Below are positions 1,437-50,885 of a stretch of DNA of 64,000 bases, piece after piece. How positions within the stretch are numbered: the stretch's first letter is position 1; every line of letters starts with the position of its first letter. The position numbers and the translations under genes are program-made. The notes beneath the pieces were generated by a model. It saw only the letters and a program-made list of their open reading frames with translations. It was not told the origin of the DNA and did no database searches. Source of the DNA: Candidatus Nomurabacteria bacterium (GTDB lineage Bacteria > Patescibacteriota > Minisyncoccia > Phycocordibacterales > UBA918); contig JACKGF010000001.1 of NCBI GenBank assembly GCA_020632095.1, positions 134,549 to 198,548 of the forward strand, written 5' to 3'.

Positions 1437-1507
1437 CGAATATTGGCTCTAAGCTTGGAGTTAAAAGACAAAAGACCCTATCTCCCACCACGAGAAGGGT
1501 TTTTTGT

Positions 1508-2623: not shown

Positions 2624-2624
2624 T

Positions 2625-4394: not shown

Positions 4395-4400
4395 TACAAT

Positions 4401-5087: not shown

Positions 5088-5088
5088 G

Positions 5089-5847: not shown

Positions 5848-6000
5848 CATTTTACATATTTGTCAAGCGTTTTTTTGTTTAAATTTGCTTGATTATCAAC
5901 AGAAAAGTGAATAACCTTGGTGATAAATAGTGGACAACACTGGTATTATTATTGTGTGATGGGAATAATTTGTTATCACAACAAAACTGTTGGGTCATAA

Positions 6001-7881: not shown

Positions 7882-7913
7882 GAAAAATAAGGTAATATAT
7901 AAGGAACGGAGTT

Positions 7914-14057: not shown

Positions 14058-14077
14058 ATGGTATGATGTAAGTAAGT

Positions 14078-15088
14078 ATGAATCGTCTAATAATTAAATT
14101 TGCAGGTGTCCTATTGTTACTGGTTTTGTTGATACCGACAAATTTAGCTTTCGCTGCAATCACTATACGGCCTTTTTTGATAGACGAAACCTACCAGCCT
14201 AGAGACTCAGAAGTAAAAACAATTACTTTGACGAGTGATTATCCTAGTCGTAAAGCGGTTTTGTATGCGACTGTTAATGAAATTACGGTTGATTCAGAAG
14301 GAGAGATAAAAGAGTTTGTTACACCAGTAATGACCGACAGGACTAACACTGTCACAAGTTGGGTAGAAATTACTAGAGGCAGGATTGAGTTAATGCCAGG
14401 TGAAAAAATTGAAGTACCCCTCAAACTAAAAATTCATCCTTATGCAGAGCCCGGAGAGTATCATGTTTTTATCGGCTTTGTTGAGACACCTAAGCGAGAC
14501 CAGGCAGAAGCTGTTGCAATGGCAGGTAAAGCTGATGGGGTGATTGTGAAAATTACTATTGCTGATGATAGAGAGGACAGTATGAAGATAAGTAGCTTTC
14601 TGATTGATCGTTTTGTTACCGGTGAAGATAAGCGTCTGATAGATATTGAGGTTGAGAACCTTGGTGATTTACCGTCTGCACCCAAGGGTGAAATTGTTTT
14701 CTATGACTCGAGAGGTGTTGAAATCAATTCTGTGCCAGTTAATAGTGAAGGAGTCGTAATTGAGCCTGGAGAGAAAGCTAGTCTAAAAAGTTCGGTACCG
14801 CTTGATGATACTTTAGGTAGATTCAAGGCTAATGTAACTTTAAATTACGGTGACAAAATGCAGGCGTCTTTGTTTGACACCACATCATTTTACATGATGC
14901 CTATGAACTTACTCTTAATGGTATTTGGCAGTATTTTAATATTGTCCATAATTGTCGCTCTCCTGTTCAGAAGGATGCTAGCTGGTGAGGCTAGGGATGA
15001 AGATGGAGATGAAGTTGTAATGTATATCCGTGAAGGCCATGACGCTAATCCGCAAGACCATGACATTGACCTTAAGAACAAAGCTTAA
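14078..15088 (+). CDS. secreted two-domain protein with C-terminal TM anchor and acidic tail (DUF916/DUF3324-like architecture; paralog of the next gene)
   Basis: 336 aa. Signal peptide (FAGVLLLLVLLIPTNLAFA). N-terminal block ITIRPFLIDETYQP...SWVEITRGRIELMPGEKIEVPLKLKIHPYAEPGEYHVFIGF parallels ISISPTIFEASANPGQ...EWLSVKHETLKIPSEQSIQVPFSISVPSDAPPGGHF in the next gene. C-terminal TM LLLMVFGSILILSIIVALLF. The family name is a guess. Confidence 0.55.
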   Translation: MNRLIIKFAGVLLLLVLLIPTNLAFAAITIRPFLIDETYQPRDSEVKTITLTSDYPSRKAVLYATVNEITVDSEGEIKEFVTPVMTDRTNTVTSWVEITRGRIELMPGEKIEVPLKLKIHPYAEPGEYHVFIGFVETPKRDQAEAVAMAGKADGVIVKITIADDREDSMKISSFLIDRFVTGEDKRLIDIEVENLGDLPSAPKGEIVFYDSRGVEINSVPVNSEGVVIEPGEKASLKSSVPLDDTLGRFKANVTLNYGDKMQASLFDTTSFYMMPMNLLLMVFGSILILSIIVALLFRRMLAGEARDEDGDEVVMYIREGHDANPQDHDIDLKNKA

Positions 15089-22687: not shown

Positions 22688-23176
22688 GTGTGTTATATTG
22701 TGGCTTGGAAAGAAGTATCTTTGATTAACAAACAAGTGAAAGGACACACCTTGTCAAATCTTGTAGATGCAGTACATCACTCAGCGGAGCATCCATATTG
22801 CCCGAGCTGTAACACACAACCAGCTTCGCGGGCTCCACGTCCGTCCCAGTCTCACGACCCAGATGCGGTTCCCCCGGAGCTAGCACGTCTCTTGCGACAA
22901 GGTGGCTATGTCAATGATGGTGAGTCCATTGAGCAAGCCGCATTTCGTGTTCTGAGCGAGAGGCTCAATCAGGAGAAGTCGCTACTGAGAAAACTTGAAG
23001 GTCTGGGCTGTTGTCTGCCTGAAGGTACCTCAGTCAGCACGTTCGCTATCGGGTTTCTGAAGCGGGCGGTCAGAATTATTGAGTTGAAGGGAGAACTCTT
23101 TTTTAGGCTTCCCAAGAGGGCACCTCTTTACTTCCGCTTGCAAAGGACTGAGGAAGAGAAGGATAGTACATGCTAG
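22688..23176 (+). CDS. hypothetical protein in GC-rich island (start uncertain)
   Basis: 162-aa ORF. GC rises sharply from ~38% to ~55% at ~22.74 kb. No recognisable motif. Pro/Arg/Ser-rich N-terminal part, helical C-terminal part. Confidence 0.4.
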   Translation: MCYIVAWKEVSLINKQVKGHTLSNLVDAVHHSAEHPYCPSCNTQPASRAPRPSQSHDPDAVPPELARLLRQGGYVNDGESIEQAAFRVLSERLNQEKSLLRKLEGLGCCLPEGTSVSTFAIGFLKRAVRIIELKGELFFRLPKRAPLYFRLQRTEEEKDSTC

Positions 23177-23195
23177 CTTGCACTGTCTCAGGTGC

Positions 23196-23229
23196 GAAAA
23201 ACCGGCCACGTGACCGGTTTTTCTTTTTT
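23196..23229 (+). terminator. rho-independent terminator
   Basis: AAAACCGG-ccacgtga-CCGGTTTT followed by TCTTTTTT. Confidence 0.7.
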
Positions 23230-23278
23230 AAAAATTATCTAAGTATACATTTTGTTAATAGATATACATACAGATCAA

Positions 23279-23308
23279 TTGACAATCTTGTTAAAAAAAT
23301 ACTATAGT
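23279..23308 (+). promoter_or_regulatory. sigma70-like promoter (TTGACA-18 nt-TATAGT) with strong RBS AGGAGGTG before ATG 23342
   Basis: TTGACA at 23279-84, TATAGT at 23303-08, AGGAGGTG 6 nt upstream of the start codon. Confidence 0.45.
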
Positions 23309-24122: not shown

Positions 24123-26153
24123 GTGAAATTTGAGATATCGACAGATAAAACTCCAGCTGGTGATCAGCCAACGGCCATCAAAACTCTAGTTGATGGTATT
24201 AAGGCTGGCCTATCGTCTCAGACGTTGATGGGGGTGACTGGGTCGGGTAAGACATTTACGGTGGCCAACGTTATTCAACAAATTCAAAAGCCGACCTTGG
24301 TGATTGCACATAATAAAACTCTGGCGGCTCAGCTGGCGCAAGAGTACCGAGATTTTTTTCCTAATAACGCTGTTCACTACTTTGTTTCATACTACGATTA
24401 CTACCAGCCTGAAGCCTATATGCCGACTTCAGATACTTATATTGAGAAGGAAGCGCAAATTAATGAAGAGATTGATCGTTTGCGTCACGCATCAACCCAA
24501 GCTTTGCTGACTCGCAAAGATGTCATTATTGTGGCTTCAGTATCATGTATTTATGGCTTAGGTTCTCCGATTGAGTACCAAAAGGTACACAAGAAAATAG
24601 AGCGAGGTTACCAGACTAATCGGGCAGAAATGTTGCGTACCCTAGTCGACATGTACTTCGAGCGTACTAACGCTGACTTAAATCCGGGTCACTTTCGAGC
24701 GGTCGGTAATACGATTGAAATAATGCCGACCAACGAGCGGGTTATTTATCGATTAAGTTTTGGTGGTGACACTGTCTCACATATCACAAAAATCGACGGT
24801 ATTACTAGAGCTATTATTGAAGAGCCTGAAGTATTTTTCTTATTTCCAGCCAAGCACTTTGTAACTCCTGAAGCGGAAAGGAAAGTGGCAATAGAAGATA
24901 TTAAGGCTGAACTAGACGAACAGCTTAAGAAATTTAAGAAAGAAGGTAAGTTATTGGAGACAGAACGTCTTAAGCGACGAACAGATCATGATTTGGCCTT
25001 GATGCGTGAAATTGGCTACTGTAACGGGATTGAAAACTATTCACGACACTTTGACCGCCGTAAGCCTGGTGAAGCGCCCTACACTCTAATGTCGTATTTT
25101 CCTCACACAGCAGATGGTAAGCCAGACTTTTTAACTATAATCGACGAGTCTCACGTTACTATCCCACAGCTTAACGGAATGTACGCTGGCGATCGCTCAC
25201 GAAAAAATACTTTAGTAGAACACGGTTTTCGCCTACCAAGTGCGATTGATAATCGACCACTAAAGTTTGATGAATTTGAAGCTACTGTTGGTCAACAAAT
25301 ATACACCACTGCTACCCCCGGAAAATACGAATTTGCCAAGCTGGCTGAGACTGGTCAAAAACCAGTCGAACAAATTATTCGTCCAACTGGACTAGTTGAC
25401 CCAGTTATTGATGTTAGACCGATTGTGGAGGAAGGTAAGTATCCAGGGCAGGTGAAGGATTTTATAGAAGAGGCCAACAAAGTCATCAAAACAGGTGGTC
25501 GAGTGCTGGTAACTACCTTGACCAAAAAAATGGCCGAAGATTTAGCTGAATTTTTGGCAGACAAGAAGATAAACACAAAATATATTCACAGTGACATTGT
25601 CACGATGGAGCGCATCGAAATTTTAACTGATTTTAGAAAAGGGAAGTTTGATTGTTTGGTTGGTGTCAACTTGCTACGTGAAGGATTGGATCTACCCGAG
25701 GTTGAGCTGGTTGCTATTCTGGATGCCGATAAGGCTGGCTTTTTGCGTAGTGAAACCGCCTTGATTCAGACTATCGGGCGGGCGGCACGTAATGTCAATG
25801 GTCGAGTTGTGTTGTATGCAGATGAGATTACAGCTGCTCTCGAGTATGCTATTGGCGAAACGAATCGTCGTCGTGAAAAGCAATTGGCCTATAATAAAAA
25901 ACATAACATAACCCCCAAAACCATTATTAAAGAAATTAAGTCAATTGCTGATCAGATGCGTTCTGCGCACGATGAGACTGTCGACACTTTACTTAAGATT
26001 GATATGCAGCTTTTTAAAAAGAATCCAGTAAAAGTACTTAAGGAAAAACGACGTCAAATGGAAAGTGCTGTTGCGATTTTAGATTTTGAAACAGCCGCAA
26101 TTTTAAGAGATGAGATAAAATATTTGGAAGAATTCGTCGAGAAAGAAAAATAA
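24123..26153 (+). CDS. uvrB: excinuclease ABC subunit B (GTG start)
   Basis: 676 aa. N-terminal PAGDQPTAIKTLVDG, Walker A GVTGSGKTFTVANVIQ, helicase motifs, and a C-terminal UVR domain (AILDFETAAILRDEIKYLEE). Confidence 0.9.
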   Translation: MKFEISTDKTPAGDQPTAIKTLVDGIKAGLSSQTLMGVTGSGKTFTVANVIQQIQKPTLVIAHNKTLAAQLAQEYRDFFPNNAVHYFVSYYDYYQPEAYMPTSDTYIEKEAQINEEIDRLRHASTQALLTRKDVIIVASVSCIYGLGSPIEYQKVHKKIERGYQTNRAEMLRTLVDMYFERTNADLNPGHFRAVGNTIEIMPTNERVIYRLSFGGDTVSHITKIDGITRAIIEEPEVFFLFPAKHFVTPEAERKVAIEDIKAELDEQLKKFKKEGKLLETERLKRRTDHDLALMREIGYCNGIENYSRHFDRRKPGEAPYTLMSYFPHTADGKPDFLTIIDESHVTIPQLNGMYAGDRSRKNTLVEHGFRLPSAIDNRPLKFDEFEATVGQQIYTTATPGKYEFAKLAETGQKPVEQIIRPTGLVDPVIDVRPIVEEGKYPGQVKDFIEEANKVIKTGGRVLVTTLTKKMAEDLAEFLADKKINTKYIHSDIVTMERIEILTDFRKGKFDCLVGVNLLREGLDLPEVELVAILDADKAGFLRSETALIQTIGRAARNVNGRVVLYADEITAALEYAIGETNRRREKQLAYNKKHNITPKTIIKEIKSIADQMRSAHDETVDTLLKIDMQLFKKNPVKVLKEKRRQMESAVAILDFETAAILRDEIKYLEEFVEKEK

Positions 26154-26206
26154 ACAGGCTGTGAGTTACAGACACTTTACATATATGAAAGTGCTATGAT
26201 AAATAC

Positions 26207-27013
26207 ATGTCAGTTCTAACCAACAAGAATGTTTTAGTGGTAGGTGAAGAAAACTCACTATTTACCAAGCTTACGCAAGTCTTTGAGGAGTACGGGATGG
26301 TTATACATAATTCAACCTGCGATTTAGTAACGTCTGTCATACTTGAAGAGAAAAGTATTGATATTGTACTTATCAATTACCTAAATCACGGACCAGCCTG
26401 TAAGGAATTACTTAACACACTCAGGAGTGTAGACACAACTAAGACATTACCAATATTCGCTTTAGTTGAGGAGAATGAAGATAAAATTCAAGAAGTGTTT
26501 TCCTATGGGGTGGCTGATTACATTACAGATGATGAGGAAGTTGACTCTGTCCTACAAAAAATCAAGACTGTTTTTGGAAACACAAACGATGTATACGGGA
26601 GTGTCTCAATTGACATAACACCGCTGCAACCAATCACCTCAGCTACAGGTATTAAGGTCTACATTGTTGAAGATGATCCACTGCTTAGAAATTTACTTTC
26701 AGTAAGGCTTGACCGCTCATCTTTTCCGTATGAGTTCAGCAATGATGGTCAAAATGCTGTGCCTGCCATGAAACAGTTTATGCCAGATGTGATAATTCTT
26801 GACTTGATGCTTCCTGGTAAGAGCGGCTTAGAAGTTTTGGCAGAAATCAAAGCTGATGAGAAAATTAAGAATACACCAGTTATTGTTTTTTCAAATCGAG
26901 ATGGACAAGAGGAGAGAAGAAAAGCAAAAGAGCTTGGCGCTAATGGTTTTTACGTTAAGGCAATGACTGACTTATCTGAACTAATAGAAACAATAGAATC
27001 TCTTGCTAAGTAA
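26207..27013 (+). CDS. response regulator with two tandem receiver (REC) domains and no output domain
   Basis: 268 aa. The second half is a canonical CheY-like REC (KVYIVEDDPLLRNLL...PDVIILDLMLPGKSG...PVIVFSNRD...GANGFYVKA). The first half is a degenerate REC (VLVVGEEN...DIVLINY). Confidence 0.7.
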   Translation: MSVLTNKNVLVVGEENSLFTKLTQVFEEYGMVIHNSTCDLVTSVILEEKSIDIVLINYLNHGPACKELLNTLRSVDTTKTLPIFALVEENEDKIQEVFSYGVADYITDDEEVDSVLQKIKTVFGNTNDVYGSVSIDITPLQPITSATGIKVYIVEDDPLLRNLLSVRLDRSSFPYEFSNDGQNAVPAMKQFMPDVIILDLMLPGKSGLEVLAEIKADEKIKNTPVIVFSNRDGQEERRKAKELGANGFYVKAMTDLSELIETIESLAK

Positions 27014-27059
27014 ATTCTTATTGTACTGATATTTTTCCATTTTAGATGCAAACAAACTT

Positions 27060-29624
27060 ATGACTATTAAGAAATTCACAAAAATTGCAGAAAAATCAAC
27101 AGTCAATAAAAAAGTCGGCGCTAAGACAGCAGATAATAAAACCCTCAAAAGTAGTAACTTGGTTAAAAAAAAGGCCATCTCCATAACTAAGAAAACTGTC
27201 ACAAAAGCTATTAATCTACCAGACAAAGCAGTTAAAGCTAAAAAAGCTCCAGTTCGAACAAAAGTAGCAAAAAAAATCCCATCAACAGTGATATCTAATA
27301 AAACTACTAAATCTAAGGTTGATAAAAAAGTTGCTGTATCTAGTAACAGAAAAGGGACAACTAAGACTCCTAAAAAGATCAAGTCTGAAAAGGATTCTGT
27401 GGTAAAAGATATTGTCTTGCCGACCAACATGAGTCAACGGTCAGTGGAAAAGTCAATGGTTCTAAATAATGAATTTTTTAATAATTTTCAAAATTCAGCT
27501 TTTAAAATAGCTTATGTTTCCGGTCTCTGTTTAGTCTTAGTTGGTTTAAGTTATACTAGTGTAGACTTTATACACAATTTTTCTCCGTTTAATCTCTCGG
27601 CCGAAGTCATAGGTTCTACTAAGTCGAACTCCCAACCAACTACTTATGCCAGCATAGAACTCAATACCGTAATACCCGATTATGTTATTAATACCTACCC
27701 AGTTACTTTTAAGGTTATTAACGCAGATGATCCAAGGGTAAAATTGATAAAGATTGGTTCATCTGTTGTAAAAGCTTTAAATGTTGAGAAAAAAACTGTT
27801 GATAGAACCTATGGTTTTGTTATACCAGGGAGTCAGCTTGACCCTGGTGTATATTCTGTGACTATTTCAGCAATGCCTTTTGGAGCTACATCTCCAATCG
27901 TTAATGAAAGAATATTTGAAATTGTTAAAGAGACACCCATGACGAAGACCTCAACTGAAACTGATGCAACAAATACTGCTATTACTATACCTAGTCAGGA
28001 TATTGTAAATTCAAGTGATAATACTATCGAGCAAAATATTGTGGAACCGCCTCAACTAAATTTGAATGAGGTTATTAGTATTGAAAAACCAATAGAGACA
28101 AAGGAGGAAGAAACTAATCTTACGCCAGAGGTTGTCCCAAAAGAATTTTCTATTAGTTCTCCTGACGGTAGTCTGCTATCTGGGTCAGTTACAATCAGGT
28201 TGTCAGCACCATCTGAATATACTTCAGTCGACTTGTATGCTCGACCCGAAGGATCAACTGATCTAAACAACATCAGACATATTGCACATGCTCTGAGTGG
28301 TCAGGATAACAGAAGATTCATTTTTGATTCAGCGATCTTACTCTCAGATGGAAAATATCAATTATTTGCCGAAACAAATGTCGAAGGAAATGCAGTCAGA
28401 TCTAGATCAATATCAGTCTCTGTAAAAAATAGAATTGAGCGGACTATTAGCACTAATCAAGAAAATCCCGACTCTTTTGCTGTAAGTGATATTGTTTCAA
28501 TAAAAAAACCGCGAGAGTTTGTAAGTATTGAAAATGCAAGTACCACTGATACAGAATCAGCTTTAGCTTTTGATAAAAATATTCAACTCGAAGTCAAAGC
28601 TCTCTTTGCTAGAGAAGATAACAATATTGATGAGTTGCTTAAGCGTTATGCCATAGCGGTACAATCAGGTGATGAGTCATTAATCCGTAGTGCAAAAGAA
28701 GGTTTACAAGAAGAACGAGAGAGAATGATTACTCTTTCTATAAGAGATGAAGATACGCGCAATTTCTCTGATAGTATAAATGAGAAACTTAAAGATATAA
28801 TTGGGAATCTTCAGAGTCGGGTAGATACATTTGAACAATTAAGAAGGGATAGGAGCGGAGGAGAAACAGCGATTGACACCGACCAGGATGGAATTTCTGA
28901 CTTCGATGAAATAAATCTTTATCGTACAGACCCGAAAGAGGCTGATACTGACAATGATGGTTTTACAGATGGTATTGAAATAATAAAAGGTTATAACCCA
29001 CTTAGTTCAGAATCAGAGGTAGTAGTAGAATTTGAATCACCTAAAGAGTCTCTAGGATTGGTTCGTGATGAGGTTCTAAAGATTGATAACGTCTTGCCAG
29101 TGGTAAAGATTGAACCAAAAGCAGGAGACGTTCCTGTTACGGCTGAAATTAGAGGGAAATCATTACCTAACAGTTATGTTACGCTTTACATCTTTAGTTC
29201 TCCAACAATTGTAACAATTAAGACAGATGCGGATGGTTCGTTTGTTTACAATTTTGATAAGGAGTTGGACGATGGACAGCATGAAGTATATGCCGCTATC
29301 ACAGACAATGCTGGAGAAATTATTGCCCAAAGTAATCCTTTCTCATTCATTAAGGAAGCTCAAGCTTTTACTCCAGTAGATGCCGCTAGCTCAGAGGTTG
29401 TAACTGGTGATCTGGTTACGCAATCAACAAAAAGTTCATACGGGGCAGTGGCTGGAATGGGAATCTTAGCGCTTGGTCTTATCTTGATAATGCTTGGTAT
29501 CACCTTGCGACCCAAGAAAGACGGCGTTGTAAAGGATGACGATGAAGAGATCTATATTGACCCGACCTTGCCAGCAGGTTCACCACTGATTAGTACTAAG
29601 GTTGAACATATTGAAACATCATGA
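27060..29624 (+). CDS. large bitopic membrane/surface protein: Lys-rich (histone-H1-like) cytoplasmic N-tail, TM, ~650-aa extracytoplasmic region with thrombospondin-type-3-like Ca-binding Asp repeats, C-terminal TM
   Basis: 854 aa. Residues 10-120 are Lys/Thr/Ala-rich (KKAVTKA, KAKKAPVRTKVAKK). TM1 FKIAYVSGLCLVLVGLSY. DTDQDGISDFDE...DTDNDGFTDGIE is a Ca-binding DxDxDG repeat. TM2 GAVAGMGILALGLILIMLGITL. Confidence 0.6.
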   Translation: MTIKKFTKIAEKSTVNKKVGAKTADNKTLKSSNLVKKKAISITKKTVTKAINLPDKAVKAKKAPVRTKVAKKIPSTVISNKTTKSKVDKKVAVSSNRKGTTKTPKKIKSEKDSVVKDIVLPTNMSQRSVEKSMVLNNEFFNNFQNSAFKIAYVSGLCLVLVGLSYTSVDFIHNFSPFNLSAEVIGSTKSNSQPTTYASIELNTVIPDYVINTYPVTFKVINADDPRVKLIKIGSSVVKALNVEKKTVDRTYGFVIPGSQLDPGVYSVTISAMPFGATSPIVNERIFEIVKETPMTKTSTETDATNTAITIPSQDIVNSSDNTIEQNIVEPPQLNLNEVISIEKPIETKEEETNLTPEVVPKEFSISSPDGSLLSGSVTIRLSAPSEYTSVDLYARPEGSTDLNNIRHIAHALSGQDNRRFIFDSAILLSDGKYQLFAETNVEGNAVRSRSISVSVKNRIERTISTNQENPDSFAVSDIVSIKKPREFVSIENASTTDTESALAFDKNIQLEVKALFAREDNNIDELLKRYAIAVQSGDESLIRSAKEGLQEERERMITLSIRDEDTRNFSDSINEKLKDIIGNLQSRVDTFEQLRRDRSGGETAIDTDQDGISDFDEINLYRTDPKEADTDNDGFTDGIEIIKGYNPLSSESEVVVEFESPKESLGLVRDEVLKIDNVLPVVKIEPKAGDVPVTAEIRGKSLPNSYVTLYIFSSPTIVTIKTDADGSFVYNFDKELDDGQHEVYAAITDNAGEIIAQSNPFSFIKEAQAFTPVDAASSEVVTGDLVTQSTKSSYGAVAGMGILALGLILIMLGITLRPKKDGVVKDDDEEIYIDPTLPAGSPLISTKVEHIETS

Positions 29625-30961
29625 TTTCTAGCGCCTTACATGCATTAGAAAACGGACTAAAAATTATGAGACTAAACTCACGCCTGCTATTAGTAGGCGT
29701 TTTAGTTTTTATTTTTCCACTCTTGTTTGTTTGGATAACTCAAAATTTCTTCACTACGGCTTATCACAATATTAATACCTCAGAAAAAAAACGTGTTTCA
29801 TTGATACAAGACTCTATATCAGTTGCACTCAGGAGTTCAAGTGAAGCAGACAAACTGGTGTCTGATTTGATTGATGTCTATAAAAAAGAAAACTCTGATT
29901 TGACCAAAATTCGTGTGGTTGAAAAGATAGATGATAATTTTGTCATAATTCAGTCAGCTGATAAGCAGCTAGTTAACACAAATGAAAAAACAGACCAGTT
30001 GTATCGGTCCTTACCACTTTCAAGTAACGGTAGTTCATTGATTGTGGAATCAATTATTGATGGTGAGCGAACATGGCAGGTTTTTAGAAGTGTTGAAACG
30101 TTAGACGATAGGTCAATGTATATTTTCTCTGAACATAGATTTGGTTTAATTGATTCAGTTATGGCAGCACGCAGACAACAGTCATATTTTGGTCTCTCGG
30201 CTATTTTTGTGTTCCTTATTCTTTTGGCTTACTGGCTTAATCGCCAAGTACATTGGAAGGCTGGGTATGACAAAATGGTTCTTCAGCTCGAGGATAGAGA
30301 TATGTTTTCTAATATGATTGCACATGAGTTTCGTTCGCCACTAACTGCAATTAAGGGCTACGCTAGTTTTCTTGAGGAGTCTAAGACTTTGTCGAAAGAT
30401 GAAGTTCGTTTTGCTTCAAATATTCATAAGTCTGCAGAACGATTGGTGGTACTTGTAAACGATTTTCTTGAAGTGGCCAGACTGCAATCTGGTAAGCTTA
30501 AAATTGAACCGAGTGAAGTTGACATGAGTGACGTATTGGCCGGTGTGACCGATGATTTACGTGGTATGGCTGAGGAAAAAGGGCTTAAATTAATTTTTAA
30601 TAGACCAGAAAAGAAATTGATGATGTTTACTGACCCAGCTCGAATGATCCAAGTTATGACCAATATAATTACCAATGCTATTAAGTACACCGACTCTGGC
30701 TCAGTTGAACTTGAGTGCGTAAAGATTCCTGGAGAGGTGACAGTGAGGGTGAAGGATACTGGAACAGGCATTAGTGCTGAAGACCAACAAAAACTTTTTG
30801 CACCATTTACCCGTGTTGGCGGAGTGGATACTTCAAAAATAACCGGTACTGGACTGGGAATGTGGATCACTAGACAGTTAGTGGTTTTGCTTGGTGGGAA
30901 TGTTGGAGTCGAATCAATTAAAGGGGTAGGGACTCACGTTGTTATTACATTCCGCACTTAG
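29621..30961 (+). CDS. sensor histidine kinase (two TM helices, extracytoplasmic sensor, HisKA + HATPase_c)
   Basis: 446 aa. H-box MIAHEFRSPLTAIKGYASFL. N box and G boxes (ITNAIKYT, KDTGTGI, GTGLGMWITRQLVVLLGG). TMs at aa ~20-42 and ~190-210. Start overlaps the previous stop (ATGA). Confidence 0.8.
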   Translation: MISSALHALENGLKIMRLNSRLLLVGVLVFIFPLLFVWITQNFFTTAYHNINTSEKKRVSLIQDSISVALRSSSEADKLVSDLIDVYKKENSDLTKIRVVEKIDDNFVIIQSADKQLVNTNEKTDQLYRSLPLSSNGSSLIVESIIDGERTWQVFRSVETLDDRSMYIFSEHRFGLIDSVMAARRQQSYFGLSAIFVFLILLAYWLNRQVHWKAGYDKMVLQLEDRDMFSNMIAHEFRSPLTAIKGYASFLEESKTLSKDEVRFASNIHKSAERLVVLVNDFLEVARLQSGKLKIEPSEVDMSDVLAGVTDDLRGMAEEKGLKLIFNRPEKKLMMFTDPARMIQVMTNIITNAIKYTDSGSVELECVKIPGEVTVRVKDTGTGISAEDQQKLFAPFTRVGGVDTSKITGTGLGMWITRQLVVLLGGNVGVESIKGVGTHVVITFRT

Positions 30962-31034
30962 GAAATAATTGTATGTTGGTGAGTAATAAGTATAATGACA
31001 ATATAACCTTCACCCTCACGTGGAGGCGATTCTT

Positions 31035-33674
31035 ATGTCTACACCCAAAAAAATAACTAAATCAGAGTGGGAAAACAACGGTCAAGGAAAGATTGTGGTT
31101 CGTGGCGCTCGTACTCACAATTTGAAGGACATCAGCGTTGAGATGCCACGAGGAAAAATGATTGCTATTACTGGTCCGTCTGGTTCTGGTAAATCTTCTT
31201 TGGCATTTGACACAATTTTTGCGGAAGGACAGCGTCGTTATGTAGAGTCTCTCTCACCCTATGCTAGGCAGTTTTTGAACAAAATGCAGAAACCTGATGT
31301 TGATGAAATTTCAGGTCTTTCACCTGCTATCTCGATTGACCAAAAGTCAGCCTCACGCAACCCTCGTTCAACCGTGGCCACTATTACTGAAATTTATGAT
31401 TATTTGCGTATAGTTTACGCGCGAGTTGGTCAACCGTATTGTTTGGACGTTGATGTGGCTATTCAGAAATTGTCACAGGATGAGATCCTAGGGATTGTCA
31501 TAAAGTCAATAGAAGACAAGGAAATAACCGCTGCGACAAAACAACAGAGCGAACAAATTCTTGGTATTGAGGTCACTAAGGGTCGGGTAGCTGTATTTGC
31601 GCCAGTAGTAGTTGGTCGTAAGGGAGAGTATTACCAAATGCTTTATGATTTGCTGGGTAAGGGTTACGAAACGGTTAAAATTGACGGTGAGATTAAACAG
31701 CTTAGAAATAAGATTGTTTTAACTAAAACTAAACGACATGATATAGACATCTTAATTGATGAGATTTATGTTAGTGAATTTATCCATGATCCAAAAGGTT
31801 CGCGTGAACGTCTGTCCGAAGCAGTAGAATTGGCTCTGCTTGAAGCTAATGGTCTAGTAAAGATTGAGAGTCCTGATGGTAGCGAACGAACACTGTCAGC
31901 CAAATTTACGTGTCCGGTCGATGGCTCATCTTTTCCAGAGGTCGAACCTCGTCTTTTCTCCTTCAACTCTCCTTATGGCGCTTGTCCGGAATGTAATGGT
32001 TTAGGTGTGGTGGGGATTTTCCAAAGTGATGAATGTACAGTTTGTAAGGGAACGAGATTGCGACCTGAAGCCCTTCGAGTTTATCTGGGTGGTGATAAAA
32101 AGAAAAATCTGGGGATGAACATAGTTAATTTCACCAGATTAACCGTCAGCGAAGCGGCTGATTTCATCAATAATCTAAATCTAAGCGACAAAGAACACGA
32201 AATCGCTTGGCCAGCCCTACGTGAAGTGATTGAGCGTTTAGACTTTATGAAGAATGTTGGTATCGAATATCTCACACTAGACAGACGAGCTAACACTCTA
32301 TCTGGAGGGGAAGCACAGAGAATCCGTCTAGCTTCGCAGCTTGGGTCAGGATTGGTGGGAGCGCTATACGTGCTTGATGAGCCAACAATCGGTCTACACC
32401 AACGGGACAATGACAAATTGATTAAAACCCTGCGTGAATTACGAGATCTCGGCAACACAATAATTGTAGTTGAACACGATGAAGATACCATCTATGCGGC
32501 CGATTATTTAATAGACATTGGACCCGGAGCCGGAGTACATGGTGGGGAAGTGATTGTGGCTGATTATCTTGAAAAACTACTAAGTGACAAGAAGAACACG
32601 TCTGGCTCTGTTACTTTAGATTATTTGCGTGGTGACAAGTCTATCGCTATACCTGAACGTCGTACTAGCGAGAAGGGTTCAATTAAAATTAAGGGTGGTA
32701 AAGCTTTTAATATTAAAAATCTAAATGTCGATATTCCATTAGGAAAATTAATTTGTGTGACTGGAGTATCTGGTTCAGGAAAATCAACCTTTATGTACGA
32801 AATTTTGGATCGCAATCTTAAAGCTAGATTAGAAAAGCGACATCGTACTGCCAAGACCTATAACGTCGCCTCTATTACTGGAACTGAATATCTCGGTCGC
32901 TCAATCTTAATCGACCAGTCGCCGATCGGTCGCACTCCCCGTAGTAACCCAGCTACTTATACTGGAGCCTTTACCCACATTCGTGACTTGTTTGCGGCTA
33001 GTGGAGAGGCCCGAGCGCGTGGTTGGAAGCCTGGGCGTTTTAGTTTCAACGTTAAAGGTGGACGTTGCGAGGCTTGTCAGGGTAATGGTTTGATTGCGGT
33101 TGAAATGCACTTTTTACCGACGGTTTATGTCACTTGCGACGTGTGTGATGGTAAAAGATTTACCAAAGAAACACTGGAGGTATATTATAAAGGGAAGAAC
33201 ATTCACGAAGTCCTACACATGACTATTGAGGAAGCTCATCAATTCTATATTGATGTGCCGGCGATTCAAGAAAGACTCAAGGCGTTGCTCGATGTTGGAC
33301 TAGGTTATCTTGAGTTAGGGCAAAGCGCCACGACTCTTTCTGGTGGAGAAGCTCAACGCGTTAAGATTGCTTCAGAACTGTATCGACCACATACCCAAAA
33401 AACCATCTACTTGCTCGATGAACCGACAATTGGTCTTCATTATGAAGATGTACGAAAGTTGATAGAAATCCTTCAGGAATTAGTCAATCAAGGCAACACT
33501 GTTATGGTGATTGAACATAATTTAGATTTAGTTAAAAGTGCTGACTATGTGATTGATATCGGCCCTGAAGGCGGAGCTAAGGGAGGACAGATAGTCGCTA
33601 AAGGTACTCCAGAACAAATAGCTGAGAATGAAAAGTCTTTCACGGGGCAGTATTTAAAGAAATTGTTAAAGTAG
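31035..33674 (+). CDS. uvrA: excinuclease ABC subunit A
   Basis: Two ABC ATPase modules (GPSGSGKSSLAFDTIFAEGQRRYVES; GVSGSGKSTFMYEIL), Zn-finger cysteines, signature LSGGEAQR twice. ATG 31035 is preferred over GTG 31020 of the ORF track. Confidence 0.9.
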   Translation: MSTPKKITKSEWENNGQGKIVVRGARTHNLKDISVEMPRGKMIAITGPSGSGKSSLAFDTIFAEGQRRYVESLSPYARQFLNKMQKPDVDEISGLSPAISIDQKSASRNPRSTVATITEIYDYLRIVYARVGQPYCLDVDVAIQKLSQDEILGIVIKSIEDKEITAATKQQSEQILGIEVTKGRVAVFAPVVVGRKGEYYQMLYDLLGKGYETVKIDGEIKQLRNKIVLTKTKRHDIDILIDEIYVSEFIHDPKGSRERLSEAVELALLEANGLVKIESPDGSERTLSAKFTCPVDGSSFPEVEPRLFSFNSPYGACPECNGLGVVGIFQSDECTVCKGTRLRPEALRVYLGGDKKKNLGMNIVNFTRLTVSEAADFINNLNLSDKEHEIAWPALREVIERLDFMKNVGIEYLTLDRRANTLSGGEAQRIRLASQLGSGLVGALYVLDEPTIGLHQRDNDKLIKTLRELRDLGNTIIVVEHDEDTIYAADYLIDIGPGAGVHGGEVIVADYLEKLLSDKKNTSGSVTLDYLRGDKSIAIPERRTSEKGSIKIKGGKAFNIKNLNVDIPLGKLICVTGVSGSGKSTFMYEILDRNLKARLEKRHRTAKTYNVASITGTEYLGRSILIDQSPIGRTPRSNPATYTGAFTHIRDLFAASGEARARGWKPGRFSFNVKGGRCEACQGNGLIAVEMHFLPTVYVTCDVCDGKRFTKETLEVYYKGKNIHEVLHMTIEEAHQFYIDVPAIQERLKALLDVGLGYLELGQSATTLSGGEAQRVKIASELYRPHTQKTIYLLDEPTIGLHYEDVRKLIEILQELVNQGNTVMVIEHNLDLVKSADYVIDIGPEGGAKGGQIVAKGTPEQIAENEKSFTGQYLKKLLK

Positions 33675-33719
33675 AAACCCCGCTGCAAGCAGACGGGGAA
33701 TTTGCTACACAAAACCTAA

Positions 33720-34019
33720 TTAGATATGGTTATGTTGCCTGAGTTTATTGCGCTTAGCAATTTTGTTTATGCGACACTGTGCGTGAAGGGAACCTTTCTT
33801 GTATAACAGATCTTCCCACCGAGGATCATTGTTTGAAGACGGTAAACTACCATAGCAGAGGTAAAAAAAATTATTCCAAAACTCCGTTTGATCAGAGCCA
33901 CCATTAGCGATAACGGCAATACCTCCTCTACTTTTATGGTACTTAATCATAGTACGAAAAGTATTTCTGAATTCCGCATCATTTCTGCGTTTTTCAATCA
34001 TAATCTTCTCCTCAAACAA
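33720..34019 (-). CDS. hypothetical small protein on opposite strand between uvrA and uvrC
   Basis: 99-aa ORF in a ~400-nt gap otherwise free of + strand coding. No recognisable motif. May be spurious. Confidence 0.3.
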   Translation of the reverse strand: MFEEKIMIEKRRNDAEFRNTFRTMIKYHKSRGGIAVIANGGSDQTEFWNNFFYLCYGSLPSSNNDPRWEDLLYKKGSLHAQCRINKIAKRNKLRQHNHI

Positions 34020-34076
34020 AAAATGCTTAACTAAAAAAATAACAAGGCTCTAAAAATGTATAGTATCATATAGAGT

Positions 34077-35312
34077 ATGGATAAGAAAGAGTTTCAAAAG
34101 AGTAAGTGTCCAGACACACCAGGAGTGTATTTTTTCTTAGGGTCTAGAAAGAAAATTTTGTATATCGGGAAAGCGACATCACTGCGTAATCGAGTAGCTA
34201 GTTACTTTACCAACGACATAAAAGAAAAACGCTCTGAATTGATTGAAAAGATGGTACAAGAAGCAAAATCTATTGATTATACTGAAACCGACAGTGTCCT
34301 AGAGGCCTTAATTCTAGAAACAAACCTAATCCGCTCGCATAAACCTTTCTATAATACCAAGAGTAAGGATGATAAAAGTTATAATCATCTTATCATCACT
34401 GATGAAGAGTTTCCGAGAATTTTAGTAGTACGGGGTAAAGATTTGGTAGAAAAATACGACGAACAAAATATAAAATATGAATTTGGCCCCTTTCCAAATG
34501 GGCAACTTTTCAAAGAAGCTCTTAGTATTGTTCGCAAACTTTTTCAATTTTATGATACAAAAATTCCGATTGGTTCAGAAAAAAGTAAATTAGCAAAAGG
34601 AAAGATTGACTTCAATCGTCAGATTGGGCTTTATCCAGAGAGACAATCAAAGACTGAGTATAATAAAACTATTAGACATGTAAGGTTGTTTTTCCAGGGA
34701 AAAAAACATTTGCTGCTCAAAGAGTTAAGACAAGAGATGATGGCCTTAGCCAAAAATGAACTGTTTGAAAAAGCCGAGCAAGTTAAGCGGCAGATTTTTG
34801 CGCTAACCCATATTCAGGATATTGCTCTGATTAAGCATGATTCAAGAGTTTATCGAGATGAGAAAAATATTAGGATAGAAGCTTACGACATTGCTCATCT
34901 TGGTGGTCAGGATATGGTCGGGGTAATGACTGTTATTGAGGGTAACCAATTAACCAAAGACGAATATCGTAAATTTAAAGTAAATAATTACACTAAATCA
35001 AACGATCCAGGGGCTTTGAAAGAAGTATTAGAGAGGCGTCTAAAACATTCAGAATGGCCATTACCACAGATTATTGTAGTGGATGGTAGTACAGCCCAAA
35101 AAAACGCGGCTGAGCAAGTTTTGAGACAATTTAAAGCTGTAATTCCTGTAGTAGCAGTTGTGAAAGATGATAAGCATAAACCAATTCGTTTGGTCGGTGT
35201 TAAGCAATTAATTGAACAAAATAAAGAGGCAATTCTGCTAGCAAATGCTGAATCACATCGTTTTGCTATTTCTTACCACCGGTCTAAACGAAGTAAAAGT
35301 TTACTTGCGTAA
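34077..35312 (+). CDS. uvrC: excinuclease ABC subunit C, short form (GIY-YIG + UVR + endonuclease domains, no C-terminal HhH region)
   Basis: 411 aa. GIY-YIG N-terminus PGVYFFLGSRKKILYIGKATSLRNRVASYF. UVR-like ELFEKAEQVKRQIFAL. UvrC endonuclease-domain block IEAYDIAHLGGQDMVGVMTVIEG. The protein ends before any (HhH)2 module. Confidence 0.75.
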   Translation: MDKKEFQKSKCPDTPGVYFFLGSRKKILYIGKATSLRNRVASYFTNDIKEKRSELIEKMVQEAKSIDYTETDSVLEALILETNLIRSHKPFYNTKSKDDKSYNHLIITDEEFPRILVVRGKDLVEKYDEQNIKYEFGPFPNGQLFKEALSIVRKLFQFYDTKIPIGSEKSKLAKGKIDFNRQIGLYPERQSKTEYNKTIRHVRLFFQGKKHLLLKELRQEMMALAKNELFEKAEQVKRQIFALTHIQDIALIKHDSRVYRDEKNIRIEAYDIAHLGGQDMVGVMTVIEGNQLTKDEYRKFKVNNYTKSNDPGALKEVLERRLKHSEWPLPQIIVVDGSTAQKNAAEQVLRQFKAVIPVVAVVKDDKHKPIRLVGVKQLIEQNKEAILLANAESHRFAISYHRSKRSKSLLA

Positions 35313-40751: not shown

Positions 40752-40824
40752 GGGCTCGTAGCTCAGCTGGTAGAGCGCCTCATTTGCACTGAGGAGGTAG
40801 CGGGTTCAAGTCCTGTCGAGTCCA
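40752..40824 (+). tRNA. tRNA-Ala (anticodon TGC), CCA not encoded
   Basis: 73-nt cloverleaf folded by hand: acceptor GGGCUCG/CGAGUCC with G3:U70 (Ala identity), D-arm GCUC-AGCUGGUA-GAGC, anticodon stem CCUCA/UGAGG, loop UUUGCAC, T-arm GCGGG-UUCAAGU-CCUGU, discriminator A. Confidence 0.85.
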
Positions 40825-41020
40825 CAAAAACCAAAACCAAAGCGGATGCTTTGGTTTTGTTGTTTTTGTGAGACATCGACAGGACTTGAAAGACGGAGGC
40901 TGCGAAGCCAGTTTTGAGGTACGAGAAACTGTAGCCGAGTCGGGGTAGCGAACACTTAGTAGATTATGAGCGAAGCGAAGTAATATACTTAGTGATTCGT
41001 GACCAAGTCCTGTCGAGTCC
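40825..41020 (+). other. tRNA-Ala(TGC) 3'-linked element: terminator hairpin, inverted copy of the tRNA 3' end, conserved ~70-nt block, and direct repeat of the tRNA 3' end
   Basis: Hairpin CCAAAGC-ggat-GCTTTGG + T-run (40837-40868). CATCGACAGGACTTGAA (40874-90) is the reverse complement of tRNA nt 55-71. The block 40935-41003 is ~90% identical to 41551-41616. AAGTCCTGTCGAGTCC at 41005-41020 exactly repeats tRNA nt 57-72 (40808-40823). Confidence 0.55.
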
Positions 41021-41387: not shown

Positions 41388-41460
41388 GGGCCCTTAGCTC
41401 ATCCGGTAGAGCGCTTCCATGGCATGGAAGAGGCGAGCGGTTCAAGTCCGCTAGGGTCCA
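41388..41460 (+). tRNA. tRNA-Ala (anticodon GGC), CCA not encoded
   Basis: 73-nt cloverleaf: acceptor GGGCCCU/AGGGUCC with G3:U70, anticodon stem CUUCC/GGAAG, loop AUGGCAU, T-arm AGCGG-UUCAAGU-CCGCU, discriminator A. Confidence 0.85.
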
Positions 41461-41630
41461 CAAGCGTTAAGAAATCCTGCCCTGCGGCAGGATTTTAGCT
41501 TGTGGAAGGCGGAGCGTTGTGAGGAGCGCGCTTCCTAGCGCGACGAGCCGCGAGCCGGGGTCGAGAACACTTAGTAGATTACGAGCGTAAGCGAAGTAAT
41601 ATACTTAGTGATTCGTGTCCACAAGCGTTA
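41461..41630 (+). other. tRNA-Ala(GGC) 3'-linked element, same organisation as 40825..41020
   Basis: Hairpin AATCCTGCC-ctgc-GGCAGGATT + TTTT (41473-97). CTTGTGGA (41499-41506) is an inverted copy of the tRNA 3' end/downstream TCCACAAG. The block 41551-41616 (CGAGCCGGGGTCGAGAACACTTAGTAGATTACGAGCGTAAGCGAAGTAATATACTTAGTGATTCGTG) is shared with element 1. GTCCACAAGCGTTA at 41617-30 is a direct repeat of 41456-69. A perfect 18-bp palindrome GTAAACAACCACCGGCCC/GGGCCGGTGGTTGTTTAC (shared central C) follows at 41631-41665. Confidence 0.55.
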
Positions 41631-50600: not shown

Positions 50601-50881
50601 TCAAATTCTACTACCACACTAGAAAAACCTTCTCGCGAAGTAGAGGTAATTTTTTTAACGTTTTCTAAACTAGAGAGACCGCGTTCAATTTCGTTTGTCA
50701 CTAAAGATTCCACGTCAGCGGCTGGAGCACCCGGCAAAACAGTAGAGACCACTCCAACCGGAATCACCACCTCTGGGGCAGATTCCTTAGGTATAGCTAC
50801 GATACTATAGCCACCAATACCAATTAAAGCGATTAAAAATAGGTAAGCGAACTTACTATTTTTTATAAAAAATTCCCACAT
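47618..50881 (-). CDS. RND-superfamily efflux permease (AcrB/MmpL-like, 12 TM with two large extracytoplasmic loops)
   Basis: 1087 aa. The topology and conserved RND blocks match, including the N-terminal IRRPI-like start (FFIKNSKFAYLFLIALIGIGGYSIVAIPKES) and repeated-halves architecture. Confidence 0.85.
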   Translation of the reverse strand: MWEFFIKNSKFAYLFLIALIGIGGYSIVAIPKESAPEVVIPVGVVSTVLPGAPAADVESLVTNEIERGLSSLENVKKITSTSREGFSSVVVEFDASADLDKSILDLKDEVDTVKQDLPDDANDPFVSEVNFVDQPILTIALSGELTDFELTALSGEVEKEIESVSGVSRVETSGVRDREVTVIVNQTSLQRFDLSLNDITNAIRNANLTFPIGQIINDGVSYNVAFEGDITDSSQIKNIGIASRGGQPVYIKDVATVEDGLSPAKSLSRLSVLGAPSLSSITFSIYKQSGGDITTITAAVNDKVDSLKEPGQLLEGITTVVVLDAGQDIKNDLVRLSSSGLQTVLLVVLLLVFAIGWREGLLAGLAIPLSFLFGFIGLYMSGNTINFLSLFSLILGIGILVDSAIVMVEGINRKMKDHPTIDKNQAAIETIREFKAPLISGTLTTVSMFVGLFIVSGVTGQFIASIPFTLIFLLFASMFVALAILPLIAAAFLHRRSATKFEQKQVEYAHRLESWYRAKLKVYLDDIEKQNRFLSLIFAALVFSIFLPINVIAGIIAGPLVYLATNKSYQLQIKKGYSEFKRNLVWLPMTVVSIAIAVVISSALPSLSLVKVIFFDQSDVDYIIVEIENPEGTTKEITDIDVRRVEEVLYDETEIDSFTVTVGSGSQFGSGGTGEKFANIFINLNKDRERNSTDIVDDLRKQMEPLNDIKVTVNQPSDGPPTGAAIIVKFLGDDLNEITNLANGSAEIFRSLPNVINVETSTNNNSTEFVMELDRDKAAALGVSPFMVSQVARTALYGTDATSLTTLDEDINVVVKLNVENSSEATSETSNVTSINALSQISIPTQSGPVPLSSLVKISLRESSSVISHEESKRIVSVTADVSEGGDAREVQAEAVKRIETELNVPGDVELSTGGGETDESNKAFMEMFLALIVGVGLMVAILTLQFNSYLHMRYVLSILPYSIIGIMVGLAITQNTLSFPSMMGFIALSGIVVNNSILLIDMMNQMRKQRPDADIENVVLDAASNRLRPILLTTITTVIGMVPLTYAGDLWSPLAYAVMFGLVFSVIITLVLIPITYNRHPGEVKS

Positions 50882-50885
50882 AATA

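Follow-up and report, generated by a model that had tools for sequence, protein, structure and literature searches.

Between uvrB and uvrA of a Candidatus Nomurabacteria bacterium (GenBank assembly GCA_020632095.1), three consecutive genes encode a response regulator (RR) with two receiver (REC) domains, an 854-residue membrane protein identical to NCBI H6784_00600 and called X here, and a sensor histidine kinase (HK). They lie in a stretch of 64,000 nucleotides of contig JACKGF010000001.1 (positions 134,549 to 198,548), hereafter the window, to which the coordinates below refer. The unit that is conserved in relatives is the pair formed by X and the kinase, and X and the kinase probably constitute one membrane sensing unit, in which X would be an extracytoplasmic co-sensor or modulator. 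An earlier note on this DNA had placed the three genes and their uvr neighbours as the listing of open reading frames (ORFs) has them, and had correctly seen that the start codon of the kinase overlaps the stop codon of X, in an ATGA at 29621-29624 that makes an overlap of 4 nt. The gap between the RR gene and X is 46 nt in the window.

Gene order around X in relatives

Gene order was compared across 88 non-redundant X loci, drawn from a short ENA contig, 11 reference-genome matches, 6 loci reached via RR homologues, and 80 metagenome loci, all of them annotated by phmmer against the window proteins. A scan of genome contigs with the full-length X alignment picked up patterns of thrombospondin type 3 (TSP3) repeats, and true relatives made up only 11 of the 80 loci that it gave. 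The metagenome loci were found with the module of X that follows the TSP3 loops, and with this query all 80 were true relatives. The kinase is the next gene after X in 83 of the 84 non-redundant loci that hold at least 400 nt downstream of X, and a 4-nt overlap is found at 53 of these 83 junctions. As far as X and the kinase are concerned, therefore, the gene order to which the earlier note had drawn attention is conserved in relatives.

Upstream of X, the arrangement varies. In the 65 loci informative for that side, X is preceded by a tandem-receiver RR (34 loci), by a single receiver of 120 residues (7) or directly by uvrB (17), and the remainder have another gene or none (5) or a truncated RR (2). 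Loci with a single receiver or no regulator before X are L118, L120, L130, L133, L135, L136, L140, and L152, as well as L123, L127, L129, and loci among L144-L167. Six loci from distant Patescibacteria (L006-L010 and L012) have neither uvr genes nor an RR, and their X-kinase pair is intact. The gaps between X and the kinase gene in distant relatives range from -4 to +3 nt, with one ORF call giving a longer overlap, and the neighbours in L007-L009 resemble sugar-phosphate metabolism genes, as judged from N-terminal sequence only. Because the pair persists where the RR and the uvr neighbours differ, the conserved unit is the X-kinase dyad and not the triad described in the earlier note, and the regulator is a clade-specific, variable addition.

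A few loci hold additional signalling genes. In L004 (8718-11444), and also in L100, genes for a FIST protein, a soluble kinase, and a 225-residue tandem receiver are found before uvrA, and in L158 (1421-4335) a dCache-HAMP kinase and a 339-residue tandem receiver precede X. All regulators seen around X in these loci consist of receivers only, with no output domains.

The order tgt, HD-domain gene, uvrB, (RR), X, HK, uvrA, uvrC recurs in about 60 loci, including some whose RR is only 46% identical to that of the window, and uvrB is 78-82% identical in relatives. The genes of the 10 kb upstream, which match LytR_C, AhpC, an AI-2E transporter, PGA_cap, and FKBP, also recur. The position between uvrB and uvrA had been called unusual and had been taken for an insertion; it is a fixed synteny across the whole clade. 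Owing to this lineage-wide order and to the separate promoters described below, it is read as synteny inherited in a compact genome and not as a functional insertion.

The recurrence of the order uvrB-(RR)-X-HK-uvrA-uvrC can also be taken to mean that the module is coupled to nucleotide excision repair, with a Lys-rich N-terminal tail of X tethering DNA at the membrane. Among complete X proteins, this tail is indeed present in nearly all uvr-flanked loci (the exception is L127), whereas the X proteins of the non-uvr loci examined (L006, L008, L009, L012, and L117) lack it. Also, no strong terminators were found between the genes of the window locus. However, uvrA has a conserved promoter and a leader hairpin of its own, the RR gene has its own extended -10 element, and X often has its own promoter too. 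The synteny extends over the whole 20-kb neighbourhood, so that linkage is not specific to the uvr genes, and elsewhere the X-kinase pair occurs without uvr neighbours. As to the tail, it has no match to a DNA-binding domain in Pfam, and its correlation with the uvr genes follows phylogeny and may go back to a single event. Coupling to repair is thus considered very unlikely.

Architecture and conservation of X and its kinase

The architecture of X was deduced from an AlphaFold model built on an alignment of 27 sequences (pLDDT of 65.7 overall and 80-94 in the folded parts), together with hydropathy. Hydrophobic helices at residues 146-171 and 792-819 provide a transmembrane (TM) segment near each end, in agreement with the earlier note. 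The N-terminal tail is followed by a conserved juxtamembrane helix with the consensus LPxNMSxRxxEK, in which P121 and K131 are invariant in the 27 sequences, and residues 126-174 are predicted to form a single continuous helix that includes TM1 (pLDDT 70-91). The variable ectodomain contains two predicted immunoglobulin (Ig)-like β-sandwiches, Ig1 and Ig2, joined by a disordered Ser/Thr/Glu-rich linker (residues 293-357), and a region of four helices comes next. Foldseek comparison of X with the PDB returned only generic tandem Ig, FnIII, and SiiE-BIg folds, and Pfam scans of sub-regions at E<=10 returned nothing credible for Ig1-Ig2 or for the helical region.

Closer to the second membrane segment are two loops of the DxDxDG TSP3 type recognized in the earlier note, for which TSP3_bac (PF18884) scores 31.4 bits against a cut-off of 25. 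Their ligand positions (D606, D608, D610, G611, D614, D616, E617, D629, D631, D633, D637, and E640) are invariant in the 27 sequences, and because of this invariance the loops would be expected to bind Ca2+. Then come a Big_13 Ig-like domain (PF19077, 41.8 bits against a cut-off of 27, residues 697-762), for which a β-sandwich is predicted at 674-764, and the motif FIKEAxAFTPVDA (residues 761-775), which sits approximately 17-30 residues before TM2 with a variable linker between them. No sortase or exosortase sorting signal (LPXTG, PEP, or PGF) was found before TM2. The protein ends with a short, variable C-tail (residues 820-854), of 5-40 residues in the family. A PKD domain (PF00801 or PF18911), which had been suggested, was detected neither in whole-protein nor in sub-region scans, and the epithet 'giant' does not suit a protein of 854 residues.

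X is the fastest-evolving gene of its neighbourhood. In L003, for instance, X and its window counterpart are 28-47% identical, and the corresponding figure is 59% for RR and kinase alike and 78-88% in the case of uvrB, uvrA, and tgt. A word-indexed search returned a single relative of X, and an exhaustive HMMER search returned 960 cluster representatives at E<=1e-30. Among the 150 X matches listed, most are full-length proteins of about 800 residues that are 32-47% identical. Conservation is unevenly distributed along the protein. Over 69 full-length sequences, identity to the window protein is 0.72 in the FIKEA motif, 0.61 in the TSP3 loops, 0.58 in Big_13, and 0.46 in TM2, and it falls to 0.12-0.25 in Ig1, Ig2, the linkers, and the tail, with the Ig-like ectodomain (0.18-0.25) evolving fastest. 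The Big_13/FIKEA module is the most conserved part of X and is retained in distant homologues.

The membrane segments are patterned as well. The conserved positions of TM1 are A151, G155, F158, and the invariant G162. In TM2, G806 and L809 are invariant, G813 is found in 66 of 69 sequences, G799, G806, and G813 follow each other at heptad spacing, and the conservation moment is highest at 105 degrees per residue. To judge from these patterns, the TM helices of X bear the marks of packing against partners and would not be passive anchors.

Such a protein might be a surface adhesin or a structural component of the envelope, co-expressed with the kinase through compact gene packing and with no role in signalling. 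Its ectodomain is a generic string of Ig-like domains with TSP3 and Big_13 elements of adhesin type, its weak NCBIfam matches, all far below the family cut-offs, are to CglD, MtsD, and Ca_tandemer, and its distal domains evolve fast, as they do in surface proteins. Besides, nearly all genes from 291 to 46217 lie on one strand with short gaps between them. Packing of this kind sits poorly, however, with the adjacency of X and the kinase across unrelated neighbourhoods and with the frequent 4-nt overlap of the two genes. Furthermore, the other surface protein of the window with a Big_13 domain (2586-4394) has no adjoining kinase, and conservation in X peaks in the membrane-proximal module and the glycine-faced TM helices rather than at the distal tip. 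We regard a purely adhesive or structural X as unlikely. The concentration of conserved residues in the membrane-proximal module and TM2, and not in the distal ectodomain, supports instead the reading of X and the kinase as one sensing unit.

The part of X that precedes TM1 (residues 1-145/150) contains 24% Lys, has a net charge of +29 to +30, and is rich in Lys, Thr, Val, and Ser, with 7% Ala. Relatives keep its composition but not its sequence (0.15 identity). Of 132 full-length X representatives, 111 begin with a tail of 60 residues or more whose net charge is +10 or higher. The earlier note had likened this tail to a Lys/Ala/Thr repeat of the histone H1 type. Its lysine content is high, but at the DNA level there is no tandem repeat, and residues 1-147 have no Pfam match even at E<=10, be it to histone H1 or to DNA-binding domains. 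The nucleoid tether that had been proposed on the strength of the lysine content is unsupported.

The kinase is a classical one, as had been stated, and belongs to class I of the two-component histidine kinases. HisKA (PF00512) matches it with 68.2 bits against a cut-off of 26.9, with an H-box HEFRSPL that contains H235, and HATPase_c (PF02518) matches with 90 bits against a cut-off of 26.4. The catalytic boxes are intact (N, NIITNAIKY at 348; G1, DTGTG at 379; G2, GTGLG at 409), and there is no HAMP or PAS domain. Among NCBIfam models the core scores best against WalK, but its 167 bits fall far short of the 725 required by the cut-off. For the ectodomain (residues 47-186), a sub-region scan at E<=10 gave no Pfam match, and a search with the N-terminal 220 residues of the kinase found only 3 proteins.

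The receiver-only regulator and the proposed sensing unit

Pfam Response_reg matches the RR in two stretches, with the best match at residues 151-263 (96.2 bits), and an AlphaFold model based on 31 homologues shows two complete REC folds connected by a disordered linker (residues 125-144; mean pLDDT 82.9). As the two REC domains and the linker occupy all 268 residues, the protein has no output domain. In keeping with this, neither Pfam nor NCBIfam yielded a match to a DNA-binding output domain (OmpR/PhoB, NarL, etc.), and the chain ends with REC2. NCBIfam models match the receiver part only and far below their cut-offs, e.g., PhoB with 105 against 296. The label 'OmpR family' given to RR homologues by JGI was rejected as unsupported by domain content. 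The best whole-chain Foldseek matches are PleD (E 7e-12) and ShkA, and the family counts at least 365 matches of about 268 residues.

The two receivers differ in their active sites, as seen in 142 distinct family members. In REC1, Asn57 occupies the phospho-Asp position (N in 89% and D in 9% of the members), and Ala85 and Thr107/Asp108 stand at the positions of the Thr/Ser and Lys residues. Since the REC fold is predicted and these three residues are lost, REC1 is a pseudo-receiver. In REC2, E155, D156, D157, D199, S229, and K251 are conserved in 100% of the members, and helix α1 is nearly invariant. The description of the RR in the earlier note, with two receivers, the first of them degenerate, and no output, is thus confirmed by Pfam, AlphaFold, and the sequence comparison. 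REC1 has a further feature in Cys38 (26318-26320) and Cys65 (26399-26401), which are both present in 128 members, both absent from 11, and found singly in 3. Most family members have exactly two cysteines, and the co-occurrence of what are mostly the sole cysteines suggests a disulfide or a metal site.

Control might run from the inside to the outside, as in integrins, with the kinase or the phosphorylated RR acting on the cytoplasmic parts of X and changing its ectodomain. X has a conserved juxtamembrane helix and a tail of charge +29 on the cytoplasmic side, and the RR has no other evident output and is strongly acidic, with a net charge of -18 overall and -12 in REC1. Nevertheless, the tail is also present in loci without an adjacent RR and so does not go together with the RR, the kinase still accompanies distant X homologues that have no tail, and contact of X with the kinase or the RR is conjectural in this scheme. 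Control in this direction is judged improbable. The idea that the tail is a docking site for the RR was rejected, as a tail with a net charge of +13 to +32 occurs in nearly all of the 17 loci in which X follows uvrB with no RR between them.

In the sensing unit that we propose, X would be made in step with the kinase by virtue of the overlapping stop and start codons, and it would span the membrane twice, with some 620 residues outside the cell. Its membrane-proximal module, comprising the helical region, the TSP3 loops, Big_13, and FIKEA, would face the 140-residue ectodomain of the kinase, and its glycine-faced TM helices would pack against those of the kinase. The fast-evolving distal Ig domains and linkers might contact the outside, i.e., a host surface, the wall, or a ligand. 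A change in X brought about by contact, Ca2+ occupancy, or tension would then alter autophosphorylation of the kinase at His235, and in this clade the phosphoryl group would pass to Asp199 in REC2 of the adjacent RR. Because it has no DNA-binding or enzymatic domain, the RR would have to act by protein-protein contacts, and REC1 with its Cys38-Cys65 pair might form an effector surface or receive a second input. The earlier note had made X an accessory component of a phosphorelay. The tie to the kinase is supported by adjacency, overlaps, and the distant loci, and the triad, the histone-like tail, the tether, and the unusual insertion are not supported.

Several points weigh against this proposal. 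In one locus (L011, 2-2458, on a contig of 2.5 kb), X is followed by uvrA with no kinase. Within the clade, adjacency is weak evidence, because the whole neighbourhood is strongly syntenic. That X and the kinase are in physical contact is something that we infer, and we also infer the cognate pairing of RR and kinase, in this case from adjacency. The evolutionary distances of X and HK covary, with a partial r of 0.63-0.72 when uvrA is controlled for, which is at least as high as the 0.58-0.61 obtained for the halves of a single protein. Such figures would fit co-evolution, yet every pair of segments scores much the same, so that the measure does not discriminate. The downstream path is not fixed, given that the RR is absent from 17 loci and reduced to a single REC domain in 7. 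The Pfam and NCBIfam matches of X include none of the accessory proteins YycH, YycI, LpqB, LiaF, and CseA. Finally, the model does not account for the role of the Lys-rich tail.

A more specific version of the proposal would make the pair a lineage-specific sensor of contact or tension in episymbiotic Patescibacteria, to which a redox or metal signal would be added, in the clade of Nomurabacteria and Kaiserbacteria, as second input through the REC1 cysteines. The doubly anchored Ig chain, stiffened by Ca2+ at its TSP3 loops, would report attachment to a host or surface directly to the kinase, and the whole would form a two-input signalling circuit free of transcription factors. By further extension, the Lys-rich tail, found mainly in uvr-flanked loci, might link the module to DNA at the membrane. 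To this elaborate form of the proposal we give little credence.

Among characterized systems, the closest in kind is WalK with YycH/YycI, membrane-anchored extracytoplasmic proteins that are encoded together with the kinase and modulate it (PMC7355866, PMC5013275). As in that system, a membrane kinase has a dedicated, co-encoded, and anchored extracytoplasmic partner. Unlike YycH/YycI, X is encoded ahead of the kinase, with translational coupling between the two genes, and it has two TM anchors, Ig-like, TSP3, and Big_13 domains, and a Lys-rich tail. Unlike in the WalK system, moreover, the RR lacks a DNA-binding domain and the kinase lacks HAMP and PAS domains. The control of WalK by YycH/YycI runs through transmembrane contacts. 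In Actinobacteria, MtrAB-LpqB and CseABC are three-gene units whose extracytoplasmic component, the product of a gene next to that of the kinase, probably contacts the sensor domain. X resembles these partners by its place beside the kinase gene, but the partners of LpqB/CseA type are lipoproteins with other folds, their genes are placed after or before both two-component genes, and the regulators are of the OmpR type, unlike the RR described here. NCBIfam models of MtrB and MtrA match only the catalytic and receiver cores of the present proteins, far below cut-off. Adhesins such as SiiE, CglD, and MtsD share TSP3 DxDxDG loops and Ig-like domains with X, the best PDB folds for X being SiiE BIg domains. 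Those adhesins are large secreted or outer-membrane proteins or lipoproteins with many repeats, whereas X carries just two TSP3 loops, has a membrane anchor near each terminus, and comes paired with a kinase.

Parallels exist for the RR as well. FrzZ is built of two receiver domains only, and both of them can be phosphorylated. PleD (REC-REC'-GGDEF), ShkA, and FrzZ resemble the RR in having two receiver folds per chain, one of which may be a non-phosphorylatable adaptor. Unlike in PleD, the pseudo-receiver of the RR comes first and the true receiver second, and there is no GGDEF domain. The co-varying Cys pair of REC1 is a feature of the RR, and we know of no such pair in PleD, ShkA, or FrzZ. 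With respect to output by protein-protein interaction in the absence of a DNA-binding domain, the RR would be comparable to CheY, DivK, and CpdR. FrzZ, the output regulator of a signalling system, works through partner proteins, and DivK is an allosteric regulator of kinases (PMC3441718). The seven related loci with a 120-residue receiver at the RR position have, in effect, a single-domain regulator of this sort, to which the RR of the window adds an N-terminal pseudo-receiver.

Bacteria of the Candidate Phyla Radiation have very few signalling systems, and to our knowledge the way in which they sense hosts and surfaces is largely unexplained. A two-component kinase with a dedicated accessory ectoprotein is a known kind of system. 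The X family itself is widespread and uncharacterized, and literature searches for the locus and for this family found no publication. With its 960 representatives coupled to one kinase family, it is a candidate for envelope or contact sensing in organisms of the Paceibacteria type. The regulators around X, whether single, tandem, or composed of a pseudo- and a true receiver, are receiver-only, and for this reason output by protein contacts rather than by transcription factors may dominate in these lineages. The co-varying Cys pair of REC1 and a covarying hairpin in the uvrA leader are by-products of the analysis.

Transcription signals and neighbouring genes

Promoters were called from consensus matches and conservation and are, accordingly, predictions; they are listed with the other features in Table 1. 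In the uvrB-RR spacer, the element TGTGAGTTA recurs with at most one mismatch in 19 of 31 distinct spacers, and its exact sequence occurs once in the window. It is followed after 23 nt in the window, and after 22 nt in most relatives, by GTGCTATGAT, which ends 6 nt before the ATG of the RR gene; in the spacers that were measured by eye, TGTGAGTTA lies 22 nt before the GTGCTA box. The pattern TGnTAnnnT is found 5-8 nt before the RR start in 25 of the 31 distinct spacers of relatives. Because this conserved extended -10 element ends 6 nt before the ATG, the RR transcript is predicted to be leaderless. Upstream of uvrB, there is a terminator-like hairpin after the HD-domain gene, and the GTG start codon has a TATAGT box 6 nt ahead of it.

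Before X, a TAnnnT box is present at 5-8 nt in 16 of 31 spacers that follow an RR and in 8 of 16 that follow uvrB, and in many cases TTATCGACA or CTGTTGAAACA stands 27-32 nt ahead of it. A degenerate TTATTGTAC is all that the RR-X spacer of the window has, a -10 box of this kind being absent, and in five relatives the spacer measures only 4-6 nt. In view of these spacers, RR, X, and HK can form one transcript in the window, where the RR promoter probably also serves X and the kinase. No terminator separates X from the kinase in any locus. The earlier note had allowed for an X gene with a promoter and a terminator of its own, independent of the other two; in the window there is neither a -10 box before X nor a terminator after it. 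X is tied more tightly to the kinase than to the RR.

The HK-uvrA spacer has a -10 box in 53 of 56 loci, in a σ70-like pattern that reads TAA-TTGCNN, 16-17 nt, GTATAAT in relatives. In most loci, a hairpin starts 9-14 nt after this box. Over 38 loci, 96.6% of its cells are paired, a fraction inflated by the choice of the register of maximal pairing for each sequence, and compensatory changes occur at 7 of the 7 pairs. The covariation score is 0.84, as against 0.23 for shuffled sequences and 0.05-0.17 for slid registers. The loop has the consensus CNNCAY, with three positions at least 90% conserved, and was not used in choosing the register. The 3' arm usually holds a GGAGG resembling a Shine-Dalgarno sequence, and the hairpin may sequester this site or stabilize the 5' end. 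It has no match in Rfam, and some relatives lack it and appear to have a leaderless uvrA. The start codon of uvrA is likely the ATG at 31035 and not the GTG at 31020, which lies inside the hairpin stem; alignments with homologues begin at residues 4-6 of the longer ORF. SOS boxes (a CTGTTGAAACAG palindrome and CTGT...ACAG near stop codons) were considered and rejected, as conservation does not extend to the second half-site and the window shows no enrichment of the short motifs.

Table 1. Coordinates of the genes, protein domains, and predicted signals of the locus in the window
Feature	Position	Strand	Remarks
uvrB	24123..26153	+	upstream neighbour; Pfam UvrB, UvrB_inter, Helicase_C, UVR
conserved element TGTGAGTTA, uvrB-RR spacer	26160..26168	+	centred near -43
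extended -10 box TGcTATGAT before RR (predicted)	26192..26200	+	6 nt before ATG
RR, output-less tandem-receiver response regulator	26207..27013	+	268 aa
RR, REC1 pseudo-receiver, aa 8-123	26228..26575	+	Asn57 at phospho-site
RR, REC2 canonical receiver, aa 151-263	26657..26995	+	phospho-acceptor Asp199
X, double-anchored Ig-domain membrane protein, predicted Ca-binding	27060..29624	+	854 aa
X, Lys-rich disordered tail, aa 1-119	27060..27416	+	predicted cytoplasmic; pLDDT below 50
X, conserved juxtamembrane helix LPxNMSxRxxEK and TM1, aa 120-174	27417..27581	+	
X, variable ectodomain, Ig-like β-sandwiches aa 195-290 and 360-458	27642..28433	+	AlphaFold strands
X, helical region, aa 498-598	28551..28853	+	four helices; pLDDT 78-94
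X, two TSP3 calcium-binding loops (predicted), aa 601-650	28860..29009	+	DTDQDG at 606, DTDNDG at 629
X, Big_13 Ig-like domain and FIKEAxAFTPVDA motif, aa 673-775	29076..29384	+	
X, TM2, aa 792-819	29433..29516	+	conserved glycine face
HK, sensor histidine kinase	29621..30961	+	446 aa; start overlaps X stop
HK domains			TM 13-46, ectodomain 47-186, TM 187-210, HisKA 226-291, HATPase_c 338-445
uvrA promoter-like site	30970..30997	+	TTGTAT, 16 nt, TATAAT
uvrA leader hairpin	31007..31026	+	7-bp stem, 6-nt loop; CCTTCAC-cctcac-GTGGAGG
uvrA	31035..33674	+	downstream neighbour; Pfam
uvrC	34077-35312		Pfam

Antisense ORFs at 26981-27430 and 30424-30870 were treated as shadows of the coding strand. 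The GC content of the RR, X, and HK genes (0.34-0.38) is lower than that of the uvr genes (0.42-0.43); a foreign origin was considered on these grounds and rejected, since other non-core genes of the window have the same GC content.

Other features of the window were noted in passing. From 291 to 15088 there is a run of large co-directional ORFs without Pfam match, one of them of 2047 residues (7914-14057). The 602-residue protein encoded at 2586-4394 has an N-terminal hydrophobic stretch resembling a signal anchor, a Big_13 domain, and a TM segment near its C-terminus; its BLASTP similarity to X (E 0.003) is confined to the Ig domain, and the two are not close paralogues. Between tgt and the HD-domain gene (22688-23308) lies an ORF of 162 codons with a GTG start, no Pfam match, and a higher GC content (0.46). 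It is followed by the strongest terminator-like hairpin of the region (23196-23223) and by the best promoter match (TTGACA, 18 nt, TATAGT at 23279-23308). In relatives such as L082, only about 60 nt separate tgt from the HD-domain gene. The uvrA-uvrC spacer (33675-34076, 400 nt) contains a minus-strand ORF of 99 codons (33720-34019) without Pfam match, and it seems to be a variable spot, as its length in relatives can be as little as 3 nt or exceed 1 kb and it sometimes holds small genes. uvrC has a TATAGT box of its own 12 nt before its ATG. Few genes of the window are on the minus strand. Two of them (47618-52445) encode an AcrB-type transporter of the resistance-nodulation-division family (1087 residues) and an HlyD-type membrane-fusion protein, a notable pair where an outer membrane is presumed to be missing. 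Lastly, the gene for D-Ala-D-Ala ligase is followed by two tRNA-Ala genes (40752-40825 and 41388-41461; anticodons TGC and GGC) with about 560 nt between them.

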